From contig OX597831.1 of assembly GCA_951406725.2 (NCBI GenBank), positions 70,060,001 to 70,124,000 of the forward strand: a stretch of 64,000 nucleotides of DNA. Direction: 5' to 3'. Below, in pieces: positions 12,144 through 24,766 of this stretch (position 1 is its first letter; the number at the start of each line of letters is the position of its first letter). A program made the position numbers and the translations under genes. The notes below the pieces were generated by a model, which saw only the letters and a list, made by a program, of their open reading frames with translations, did not search any database and was not told the origin of the DNA. This DNA comes from Octopus vulgaris. Lineage: Eukaryota.

Positions 12144-12185
12144 GCTACAGACGCGTTTCGGGGTATTGCCCCTTGTCAATGTAGC
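12144..12185 (-). ncRNA. Minimal hammerhead, U3-A8 core variant
   Basis: GCTACA-TTGACAA-GGGG caata CCCC-GAAA-CGCG-TC-TGTAGC: 6-bp stem I, 4-bp stem II, palindromic stem III, GUC site. Confidence 0.85.
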
Positions 12186-12506
12186 GCAGTCAGACCCGCA
12201 GGTGTCGCCACTGACGTCTCTGTTCGAAGGCTTATATTTACCTAGTTTCAGTGGAATACATCCACTTGTTTTCAATAATAGAAATATTAAAATTACTAAG
12301 TCTCTATAAAAGAGATTATGGCAGCGTTTACTGGAAATTAATTGTTATCGCCATATTAATATGGCATTCTTATAGATATAAGAATAATCGCTGCCATGGT
12401 CAGCTCCATCAGGCCAACGCCATCAAGATAGCTATTGATACACGATCTGTATCCATTATAACCTTCGAACAAGGGAGGTCAGCCGCTTCATACTGCCAGT
12501 CCGACA

Positions 12507-12548
12507 GCTTCAGACGCGTTTCGGGGTATTACCCCTTGTCAATGTAGC
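12507..12548 (-). ncRNA. Second tandem copy of the U3-A8 hammerhead
   Basis: GCTACA-TTGACAA-GGGG taata CCCC-GAAA-CGCG-TC-TGAAGC (one stem I mismatch). Confidence 0.8.
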
Positions 12549-12789
12549 GCAGTCAGACCCGCAGGTTATAATGGATACAGATCGTGTATCAATAGCTATC
12601 TTGATCGCGGTGGCCTGATGGAGCTGACCATGGCAGCGATTATTCTTATATCTATAAGAATGCCATATTAATATGGCGATAACAATTAATTTCCAGTAAA
12701 CGCTGCCATAATCTCTTTTATAGAGACTTAGTAATTTTAATATTTCTATTATATATATATATATATATATATATATATATATATATACA

Positions 12790-13912
12790 CTGTGTAAATT
12801 ATAGGGGTAAAACATTAGTATAATTTATTACCAGTGGTTTGCATGTGTAATAAAAGTCATTAAACAACATATTTTCATATATAAGAGTGTATAAAGATTT
12901 ATACACAGAGAGAAGACCCTTGATAGGACATCTTACATGCTAAAAAGGGCAGTTAATCCCAAACCATGAAGAAAATAATCCTAAAGGCACACTGATTAGA
13001 ATGAAAAAAAATATTATTAGTTAATCCACACCACTATTAATGAGCAAATAAATTAATTTTTCCATCTGTGGTTTATCAGTGGGCTCATTAAGACAATGCA
13101 TAATTATATAGCTTAATATGTATTGAAAAAACACATGTGAACTGCATTTTTATACATTATGGATTTAAATCAAGCACACAAGTGCTGTCACATGGCCAGC
13201 AGCAAATAATAAGTTTAAATTGCATACTATATGGCCTCAGAATTAGGAAAATTTAATTGTGTAAATTATAGGGGTAAAAAATTTAGAATAATTTATTACC
13301 AGTGGTTTGCATGGATAATAAAAGTCATACGACAACACATTTTCATATATAGGCACAGGAGTGGCTGTGTGGTAAGTAGCTTGCTAACCAACCACATGAT
13401 TCCGGGTTCAGTCCTACTGCATGGCATCTTGGGCAAGTGTCTTCTGCTATAGCCCCGGGCCAACCAATGCTTTGTGAGTGGATTTGGTAGACGGAAACTG
13501 AAAAAAGCCTGTCGTATATATATATATATATATATATATATGTGTGTGTGTGTGTGTGTGTGTGTTTGTGTGTCTGTCCCCCTAGCATTGCTTGACAACC
13601 GATGCTGGTGTGTTTACGTCCCCGTCACTTAGCGGTTTGGCAAAAGAGACCGATAAGTACTGGGCTTACAAAGAATAAGTCCCGGGGTCAATTTGCCCAA
13701 CTAAAGGCGGTGCTCCAGCATGGCCGCAGGCAAATGACTGAAACAAGTAAAAGAGTAAAAGAGTAAAAGAGTAAGTGTGTATGAAGATTTATACACAGAG
13801 AGAAGACCCTTGACAGTACTTCTTGCATATGTGGTTTGGGTCTAACTGCCCTTTTTAGCATGTAAGAAGTCCTGTCAAAGGTCTTCTCTCTGTGTATAAA
13901 TCTTTCATATAT
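12790..13912. repeat. Diverged tandem duplication (12790-12965 / 13257-13830, second copy split by a SINE) ending in an inverted arm; PLE-like layout
   Basis: TGTGTAAATTATAGGGGTAAAA..TTACCAGTGGTTTGCATG occurs twice. 13832-13912 is the reverse complement of ~12885-12965. Confidence 0.7.
13351..13774 (+). mobile_element. SINE family A, full length
   Basis: Near-identical to 871-1290. Confidence 0.9.
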
Positions 13913-14239
13913 ACACAAACACACATTCATATATCCACAAACACACACACACTCACACACATACACACACACATGTATAACAAAATAGAAATCTGGCAAA
14001 TTTTGGGTATTATTTATACACCATTACACATGCTTCAATTGTGCATGTTGAATGAACATGTAAAAAAAATTTCCGATTAGAAATTCTTAAGATAGTGAAT
14101 CAAATAATATTAATTGATTCTCTATCTCTTCAAGTAATATTTTCGGAATTTTCAACTCTAATATGTCCCTCACATCAATACAGCTATAACTACATACACT
14201 GGATTGTAATACTAGAAGAAGGAAATGTTCTTTTTTTTT

Positions 14240-14538
14240 GTTCCTTCTTGAGGCATGCCTGACTCATAAGGGCCGGTTTCCTGGTTTCGTTGATGTATAG
14301 GTTCCCCACCTGGACGGGACGCCAGTCCATTGCAGGTGAGCTGCAAGATGCAGGAGGAAACAGTGAGAGAAAGTTGTGGCGAAAGAATCAGCAGAATTTC
14401 GCCATTACCTTCTGCCAGAGCCGTGTGGAGCTTAAGTGTTTCGCTCATAAACACACACATCACCCAGTCTGAGATTCGAACTCGCGATCCTTCAACCGCA
14501 AGTCCGCCTGCTCTAGCCACTAGGCCATGTGCCTCCAC
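14240..14538 (-). mobile_element. tRNA-derived SINE, family D variant with a different tail
   Basis: Head GGAGGCACATGGCCTAGTGG..GTTCGAATCTC. Tail shared with 39880-39975. Confidence 0.8.
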
Positions 14539-22510: not shown

Positions 22511-23118
22511 TTTTGTCTTGATGTGGTCGAAGTAGACACATACATTTTGCCATGATGATTTTGTCTATTCATTGATATTTGTATTTGTTTTTCAAAATAG
22601 ACGATGATCTTCTTTAAAATTTTCAGCAAAGTTTTGCCAGAATTAAATTTAAAATTGTTCACAGCTTGGGTAATCTTTCCTTTCAGGTTGTTTTTAATTC
22701 TACAATTGTATTTTAACGTACATATTGAGCATTTAAAAATTTTTTTCTGTGAATTACTTTGAAACATTACTTGGCTTATTTCTTTATCTCTGTATAACAT
22801 TACAGTGCCATGTTTACTTAAACATGTTAAAATGTATGTATCATTTATATAGAAATGCTGCAATATACATAATGTTTTAAAAAAAACTAATGTAGAAATA
22901 TTTATTTCTAATCTTACCACATTCTGTAGCACATCTTCTTCAATATTTAGCATGCTGCCTTCTTATAAGTAGTAAATACACACGTCCAATAATCGAACTG
23001 ACCACAACAGTTGTTATATGTATGTGTGTATATATTTGTCTATCTATCTATCTATCTGTCTGTCTATATATATATATATACATATATATATATGTGTATA
23101 TATATATATATATATATA

Positions 23119-23297
23119 CTTTATTTAAAGCAGCAGAAAATTCAACAAAACCTGTTACTCTGAGTTTCCCGTTGCCGTTCATCAGACAGGTTTTGTTGAA
23201 TTTTCTGCTGCTTTAAATAAAGCATATTACTCTACCACTGGTATTTAAGTACTCTTTTTCCCACCTTGTTTCACATTTATGTGTTTACTCCGGTACA
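23119..23297. mobile_element. Short PLE-like insertion in (TA)n: 37-bp perfect hairpin enclosing a hammerhead core
   Basis: 23119-23155 is the reverse complement of 23186-23222. Same family as 30953-31347. Confidence 0.8.
23151..23190 (-). ncRNA. Hammerhead with canonical core
   Basis: CCTGT-CTGATGA-ACG gcaa CGG-GAAA-CTC a GAG-TA-ACAGG. One stem II mismatch; the sister copy at 31062-31099 has CGT. Confidence 0.8.
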
Positions 23298-23308
23298 TAT
23301 ATATATAT

Positions 23309-24265
23309 ATATGAATAAAAAATGGAGTTAACGCAGGTTTAAACAAGTATTTTTACTTTCTACATATGTTTCGAAAATTCCACTGATACTATTCAAAAGA
23401 ATAAATGGTATAAACAATGCAATCTTCTCTTCGGGAAAGTGAAAAAACGAAACTCGTCAATACGACATTTTAGCAAAAAATGATGGATTTGTATAGCGAT
23501 AGACAGAACGCTATTAATATTGTTTAAAAAAACGTTATATGATATAACGTCATAAGTAGCTAACAGAAAGAGTAGGGATATTAATAGTGAATGTTAAATA
23601 TAAAGGAAATTAAAGTTTAAATTATATATAATGATAGAGACTACTTATATGCACTAAATGTATGTTTCTGCCAATGATTACATCTGTATGCTCGTTCTAT
23701 AACCGTGTTTACTAGAGTATTTTTAGAACGAGCATACAGATGTAAGCATTGGCAGAAACATACATTTAGTGCATATAAGTAGTCTCTATCATTATATATA
23801 ATTTAAACTTTAATTTCCTTTATATTTAACATTCACTATTAATATCCCTACTCTTTCTGTTAGCTACTTATGACGTTATATCATATAACGTTTTTTTAAA
23901 CAATATTAATAGCGTTCTGTCTATCGCTATACAAATCCATCATTTTTTGCTAAAATGTCGTATTGACGAGTTTCGTTTTTTCACTTTCCCGAAGAGAAGA
24001 TTGCATTGTTTATACCATTTATTCTTTTGAATAGTATCAGTGGAATTTTCGAAACATATGCAGAAAGTAAAAATACTTGTTTAAACCTGCGTTAACTCCA
24101 TTTTTTATTCATATTATTCAAAATATTCAACGTAAACACGAAGTTTCAACCTTTATAAACAAGGAGTTACAACATCTTTACTTGTGAGATTTTTGCTGCC
24201 CTGGTAACTATTTATTTATTTTTCCGTGTTAATTGTTAACAAGGTAAAAATACACTCATCTATTT
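23309..24265. mobile_element. ~800-bp near-perfect palindrome (arms ~23309-23699 / 23724-24114) plus unique tail, between TA tracts; PLE-like
   Basis: ~390-bp arms, 24-nt loop, only two mismatches seen by eye. Confidence 0.9.
23355..23440 (-). ncRNA. Hammerhead with extended stem II (mirror copy 23983-24068 on + has CA in place of UA)
   Basis: ACTTTC-CCGAAGA-GAAGATTGCATTG..CAGTGGAATTTTC-GAAA-CATATG-TA-GAAAGT. Confidence 0.75.
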
Positions 24266-24329
24266 ATATATATCTATATATATATCTATATATATATCTC
24301 TCTCTCTCTCACTATATATATATATATAT

Positions 24330-24766
24330 ATATATATGAAAAAACAAGTCAAAAATAGAAAATGCTAAGATAATTTTATAGTGAATCTTTCAGTACCGGT
24401 TTCGGTCATTTTGAGACCTTTTCAACTGTAACGATTAAATAATTAAATTTAGAAAAATTAGAAGAAAAGTTTTTTAAAAGAATATTTCTATAGTAGTGTT
24501 CAGATATAAGTGGCATTCTGCCTTTCTCTGACTCCCTTGTTTGCACTGGTGCAAACAAGGGAGTCAGAGAAAGGCAGAATGCCACTTATATCTGAACACT
24601 ACTATAGAAATATTCTTTTAAAAAAACTTTTCTTCTAATTTTTCTAAATTTAATTATTTAATCGTTACAGTTGAAAAGGTCTCAAAATGACCGAAACCGG
24701 TACTGAAAGATTCACTATAAAATTATCTTAGCATTTTCTATTTTTGACATGTTTTTTCATATATAT
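24330..24766. mobile_element. ~435-bp near-perfect palindrome with a 2-nt centre, in a TA tract; PLE-like
   Basis: Centre TTGCAC-TG-GTGCAA at 24541-24554. Arms differ by about one substitution and an A-run length change. Confidence 0.9.
24668..24705 (+). ncRNA. Minimal hammerhead, U3-A8 core variant (mirror copy 24391-24428 on -)
   Basis: CAG-TTGAAAA-GGTC tcaaaat GACC-GAAA-CCGG-TA-CTG. Confidence 0.75.

Follow-up and report, generated by a model that had tools for sequence, protein, structure and literature searches.

Hammerhead ribozymes in which core positions 3 and 8 pair as U-A, in place of C-G, are already known. According to the accessible parts of the papers, to which all citations given here refer, U3-A8 covariation occurs in several natural hammerheads (Perreault et al. 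2011; PMC3088659) and, with about 1,300 matches, in the Cercyon Penelope-like elements (PLEs) of Schistosoma mansoni (Cervera and De la Pena 2014; PMC4209133). Two of the 56 rows in Fig. S3 of the latter paper are U3-A8: they feature different stems and the cores UUGAUAA and UUGAAAA, the UUGAAAA one within a full PLE. The stretch of DNA analyzed here, indicated as the window, comprises 64,000 nucleotides (nt) from Octopus vulgaris (assembly GCA_951406725.2, contig OX597831.1, positions 70,060,001 to 70,124,000). It contains four U3-A8 hammerhead motifs, two in each of two families, indicated as family 1 and family 2. This observation, reported in a preliminary description of the window, is confirmed, while its interpretation is supported in part. 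The swap itself is not new: the Fig. S3 rows differ in their stems, and its occurrence in two families with different stems is therefore already in print. With the window, a known observation, that of U3-A8 in dimer-type hammerheads of Penelope-derived non-coding repeats, is extended to a further genome.

The motifs are reported in Table 1, along with the elements containing them. All have the type I hammerhead layout, and each consists of stem I, a 4-bp stem II starting with G10.1-C11.1, a GAAA segment, a stem III formed by a 6-nt palindrome, and H17. Around the three helices, U4, G5, A6 and A9, then G12, A13 and A14, the A15.1-U16.1 pair and H17 are all in place. Positions 3 and 8 form a Watson-Crick U3-A8 pair in all four copies, and no extra base follows A9 in either family. 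The stems are of different quality: those of the copy at 12144-12185, where the palindrome ACGCGU (12151-12156) forms stem III and stem II is a G-C helix, are stable; the copy at 12507 contains a mismatch, and family 2 features a weak stem I (3 bp, a mismatch, 2 bp) and a U3-A17 pair. The positions originally assigned to the cores turned out to be the low ends of the motifs, which are real.

Table 1. Localization of the U3-A8 hammerhead motifs and of the palindromic or tandem elements in the window
Feature	Position	Strand	Description
Family 1 hammerhead, downstream copy	12144..12185	-	6-bp stem I; UUGACAA; U3 12179, A8 12174; 4-bp stem II; C17 12150
Family 1 hammerhead, upstream copy	12507..12548	-	363 nt away; UUGACAA; U3 12542; C17 12513; one A.A mismatch in stem I
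Family 2 hammerhead	24665..24708	+	UUGAAAA; U3 24671; 4-bp stem II; ACCGGU; A17 24702
Family 2 hammerhead, mirror copy	24388..24431	-	UUGAAAA; U3 24425
Full non-coding unit, retrozyme-like	11974..12336	-	363-bp period
Upstream partial unit, pseudo-LTR-like	12337..12566	-	230 bp; 97.4% identical to 11974-12203
Inverted copy of 12275-12467, 5' side of the element	12560..12752	+	193 nt, 98%; adjoins (TA)n run
Near-perfect palindrome with both family 2 copies	24330..24766		98.6%; between (TA)n runs
Third palindromic element, U4C hammerheads CCGAAGA	23309..24114		806 bp; 23434 (-), 23989 (+); stem III ACAUAUGU

The four copies reduce to two events: in family 1 they result from a tandem duplication, in family 2 they are the arms of one palindrome. 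The family 1 element ends in (TA)n and its locus contains 1.6 tandem units, with one hammerhead per unit. The layout described for PLEs (PMC8557442), with a microsatellite as target, a partial tandem and a 5' copy in inverted orientation, is the one found here. The family 1 RNA extending from cut to cut (12150-12512) is 363 nt long, with a GC content of 0.42; its folding has a z score of -8.0, and none of 100 shuffled sequences folds equally well. When 55 of the 153 stop-to-stop open reading frames (ORFs) were scanned, no Pfam match to a reverse transcriptase (RT) or to GIY-YIG was found at either element: these are therefore classified as non-coding derivatives, and not as autonomous PLEs. 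Quite probably, both are non-autonomous elements derived from PLEs, carrying a type I hammerhead of the dimer type close to the 3' end.

Features in common with Cercyon PLEs are the 3-8 covariation, the palindromic stem III, the dimer-type design and the presence of motif pairs on opposite strands, 100–700 bp apart in Cercyon. The two families differ in lacking the extra base after A9, listed as conserved in PLE hammerheads (PMC4209133), and in having a 6-nt palindrome as stem III; in addition, stem I of family 1 is 6 bp long, and no RT ORF adjoins the motifs of the window. Family 1 also resembles the metazoan non-LTR (long terminal repeat) retrozymes, which are short tandem non-coding units, of 350–390 bp in mussel, with GC below 45% (PMC7229834), derived from PLE pseudo-LTRs (bioRxiv 10.64898/2026.07.22.740005). 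Its tandem unit is 363 bp long, non-coding and low in GC, the monomer is highly self-paired, and each unit contains one type I hammerhead with helices of 6, 4 and 2 bp. Differences are the U3-A8 core, the presence of 1.6 units only, the inverted 5' copy and the still putative circular RNA. The term U3-A8 does not occur in the accessible main text of either report, and nothing on it is found in the accessible parts of PMC7151607 and PMC6155905. A literature search found no description of family 1 or 2, which is weak evidence.

The ability of U3-A8 to represent the family 1 consensus was evaluated on contigs from four of 24 listed runs, bearing three species labels, aligned to positions 11965-12345 with at least 80% likeness. 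The runs, selected by likeness, contributed 2166, 1779, 568 and 67 contig records; one of them is possibly the source sample. All 30 depth bins of the unit are covered in each run. In none of the four a variant of 3% or more is found at either 12179 (U3) or 12174 (A8): within the limits of contigs, U3-A8 is the family 1 consensus, and the proviso that the consensus might be CUGANGA, with mutated copies in the window, does not hold for this family. At N7 (12175), A replaces C at 78%, 60%, 82% and 100% of depth. Since N7 is mostly A, the consensus core of family 1 is UUGAAAA, identical to that of family 2. Other changes are an A-to-G in stem I, with a G.U pair kept (29–100%), a minor C11.1-to-U wobble (1–5%) and, infrequently, a change at stem I's distal end. 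Loose contig ends over 12127-12156 (61, 53 and 38 contigs in the three non-RNA runs) indicate a sister subfamily. Their consensus has ACUAGU for ACGCGU, in register with 12145-12156, as judged by eye and with the core outside the view: the two changes leave self-complementarity intact, and the U after stem I is retained. In the run X14, whose RNA origin is a guess, 67 contigs lie on the unit, one of them spanning a head-to-tail junction; in contigs, a circle looks the same as a tandem or as DNA.

The preferred reading, in which family 1 would have the form of a non-LTR retrozyme, implies, by analogy with known systems, the following likely cycle. A read-through RNA would cover two units, stem III hexamers, being self-complementary, would pair between the two hammerheads, in the manner reviewed for dimer cleavage (PMC6765202), and cuts 3' of C17, at 12513 and 12150, would release the strongly self-paired 363-nt monomer. 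This could be circularised and copied back, in trans, by the RT and endonuclease of a PLE, with insertion into (TA)n in the form of a partial tandem that has an inverted copy on its 5' side. The U3-A8 pair would be a tolerated substitute for C3-G8, produced by two transitions; it would have become fixed in the family 1 founder and multiplied along with the family. The fact that both changes are transitions may be why U-A is the natural variant. For the homodimer of the 12144-12185 motif, the minimum free energy (MFE) structure is exactly the double hammerhead, at -31.9 kcal/mol, compared to -26.6 kcal/mol for two monomers.

A number of results weigh against the reading just given. In the real tandem transcript of family 1 the double hammerhead is less stable than the MFE structure by 10.7 kcal/mol, and the pairing probability of stem III is 0.0. 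The MFE structure of the family 2 monomer pairs U3 with A17, which may be seen as the U-A counterpart of the C3-G17 trap (PMC3884650), while the family 2 read-through RNA is one long hairpin, whose palindrome buries the motif. Activity is probably low, and the family 2 copy in the window is probably inert. PLE hammerheads, moreover, cleave weakly in vitro (PMC4209133), and when all double mutants of a type III hammerhead were screened, activity was regained at the 3-8 pair with the G3-C8 swap alone, not with U3-A8 (PMC9901934). Ribozymes with covaried 3/8 positions are stated, in contrast, to be active in vitro (PMC3088659): tolerance therefore appears to depend on the context. As to an autonomous PLE partner, none was found: a PLE-like RT, compared to the window by tblastn, gives only E values of 4.4 and 9.7. 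Finally, because contigs drop rare variants and at least 80% likeness was needed, a diverged C3-G8 subfamily could have escaped the family 1 census.

Mere resemblance to a hammerhead, arising by chance, was evaluated by a descriptor leaving positions 3 and 8 open. Six matches are found in the window, four U3-A8 and two C3-G8, none being unpaired at 3/8; in 1,308 Markov-resampled windows the mean is 0.027 and the maximum 1. The contrast is overstated, since the descriptor was tuned once the motifs were known, and several other hammerheads of the window are missed by it. Among chance matches in this AT-rich DNA, U3-A8 is the most frequent class (0.0054 per null window), and Rfam offers no hammerhead match at cut-off. 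For family 1 no hammerhead match is reported at all; its stem I is preceded by a bulge and followed by a U, features shared with the Hammerhead_HH9 consensus. Family 2 matches Hammerhead_HH9 (clan CL00010) at 22.9 bits, below the cut-off of 52. Over the whole window no hammerhead is found among the 150 of 219 rows listed, mainly matches of microsatellites and hairpins to miRNA models. The conservation of the motif throughout family 1 speaks, however, against chance, as does the outcome of the pattern scans, where chance-like matches to the family 2 type fail: none of 11 genome matches and none of 54 viral ones pass the stem test. No second independent family 2 copy is present in the data searched, these matches included. 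For family 1 the chance explanation is largely refuted, and for the motifs in general it is extremely unlikely. That strict descriptors miss such variants, as had been proposed, is borne out for the U3-A8 motifs by Rfam, not for the motifs with an extra base, which is part of the published PLE consensus. Rfam thresholds miss these motifs, and censuses of retrozymes and PLEs should keep positions 3 and 8 open.

Two further explanations take the hammerheads as real and differ on catalysis. Two transitions of a common kind might have produced U3-A8 in a founder that no longer depended on its hammerhead, and a dead ribozyme would then have spread as a passenger, with no cleavage. Single mismatches are indeed common in genomes, as in the C3-A8 motif at 24967, compared to its C3-G8 paralog at 45306, and positions 3/8 are unpaired in 5 of the 42 sound metagenome hammerheads among the matches listed. 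Naiad PLEs spread without canonical hammerheads (PMC8557442), and the weak cleavage and the type III screen mentioned above point in the same direction. The invariance of the family 1 core is not significant by itself: at the unit's density of variants, 11 conserved positions would all be free of them by chance with a probability of 0.43. A dead motif is nonetheless unlikely, as variants within the family 1 motif are confined to N7, to pairs kept as wobbles and to the distal end of stem I, the sister subfamily retains a palindrome, and ribozymes covaried at 3/8 can be active. At the opposite end stands the strong form of the original interpretation, two compensatory swaps occurring independently in unrelated families, each selected for catalysis. 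Outside the motif the families show no significant homology: in four comparisons, between 19 and 945 of 1000 shuffles match the best local scores, and 38 of 1000 do so for the two whole units. U3-A8 also recurs in distant genomes (PMC4209133). Lack of detectable homology does not, however, establish independent origins: both families share the consensus core UUGAAAA, the absence of a bulge after A9, the 4-bp stem II and a hexamer of the AC-SS-GU type, so common descent must still be reckoned with. For family 2 the consensus is putative, and U3 can be trapped by A17. Selection on catalysis is not borne out by core invariance, at P = 0.43, and the two-swap explanation appears very improbable. 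Of the compensatory U3-A8 idea, what stands is the existence of the hammerheads, with the 3-8 Watson-Crick pair kept and consensus in family 1; the argument for selection on catalysis is weaker than was proposed.

The non-autonomous PLE derivatives preferred here may be given a more ambitious interpretation, which is doubtful, for family 1: an active, high-copy non-LTR retrozyme, present in at least three species, with a hammerhead of canonical size, a fixed U3-A8 pair and an abundant 363-nt circular RNA. If so, censuses requiring CUGANGA would miss it, and a natural, tertiary-stabilised U-A hammerhead would be available for testing when the pair is tolerated. Should family 1 cleave and circularise, it would provide a ready natural case for finding out why some hammerhead contexts accept U3-A8 and others do not.

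Other hammerhead variants listed in the preliminary description, namely the CUGACGAA, CUGAUGAA, CUGUUGA and CUGUGGA motifs, are also present in the window. The extra A after the core does not escape published descriptors, as was claimed, since this base belongs to the PLE-type consensus (PMC4209133). U3-A8, U4C and changes at A6 are all natural according to PMC3088659, where U4C is known from a viroid and an A6C variant has low activity; A6U is outside what was found in that source, and a literature search for A6U returned a twister paper only. The U4C motif at 23989, with core CCGAAGA and a long stem II, represents a real hammerhead. It belongs, however, to a single palindromic element (Table 1), where the stem II region measures 55 nt and stem III is an 8-nt palindrome; U16.1 is changed to C in the + copy, while the hammerhead is intact in the mirror copy at 23434 (-).

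Some of the listed variants are not family states, as they differ between copies of one family. The hammerheads 23185(-) and 31095(-) are paralogous, with cores CUGAUGA and CCGAUGA; their stem III is longer and near-palindromic, and short inverted copies lie alongside. A second pair of paralogs, 24967(-) and 45306(-), is 85% identical, with cores CUGACAA and CUGACGA, differing by a single G8A at a CpG; the C3-A8 state at 24967 might represent an unpaired intermediate on the path to U3-A8. Four related Penelope-type hammerheads (77–82%) are located at 10372(-), 11144(+), 11575(+) and 46058(+). U6 is found at 10372, 11575 and 46058 (CUGUUGA or CUGUGGA) and A6 at 11144; of the U6 copies, two also have a damaged GAAA. 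The A6U change, uncompensated, could characterise the family as a whole. A single hammerhead at 49589-49646(+) has no paralog in the window; its core is CUGACGA, it has an extra A, and its stem III is longer.

Outside relatives were searched by pattern. The family 1-type pattern gives no matches in viral contigs. In metagenomes at least 106 matches at at least 104 loci are found; among the matches listed, the stem filter kept 42 and dropped 64. The 42 sound hammerheads, with the same palindrome, include 37 C3-G8, three A3-G8, one U3-G8 and one C3-A8, and no U3-A8, which is therefore a minority form. Many of them are interrelated, hence not independent, and they lend no outside support to the covariation. 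From the metagenome loci, 61 ORFs in 41 loci were obtained, 46 of which were scanned. One, RT-like, is located just upstream of a hammerhead (L057:203-2344): it encodes 647 residues, with an RVT_1 match (E 1e-4) below cut-off, and ends about 170 nt upstream of a same-strand C3-G8 hammerhead with the ACGCGU palindrome. No NCBIfam match or GIY-YIG was seen for this ORF, and nothing significant in comparison with the window.

The window is AT-rich, dense in microsatellites and short interspersed repeats, and reads as animal non-coding DNA; the repeats look cephalopod-like. Its Pfam matches include fragments of an RT and of DDE transposases, distant from the hammerhead motifs. At 43446-44617 an RT fragment (RVT_1, E 1e-15) is followed by a PHD-like finger, with partial copies of the repeat near 21567 and 37166: probably, this is a LINE remnant, bearing no relation to the hammerheads. 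DDE transposase remnants are located at 61497-61931 (DDE_Tnp_1_7) and at 63110-63986 (HTH plus DDE_3).

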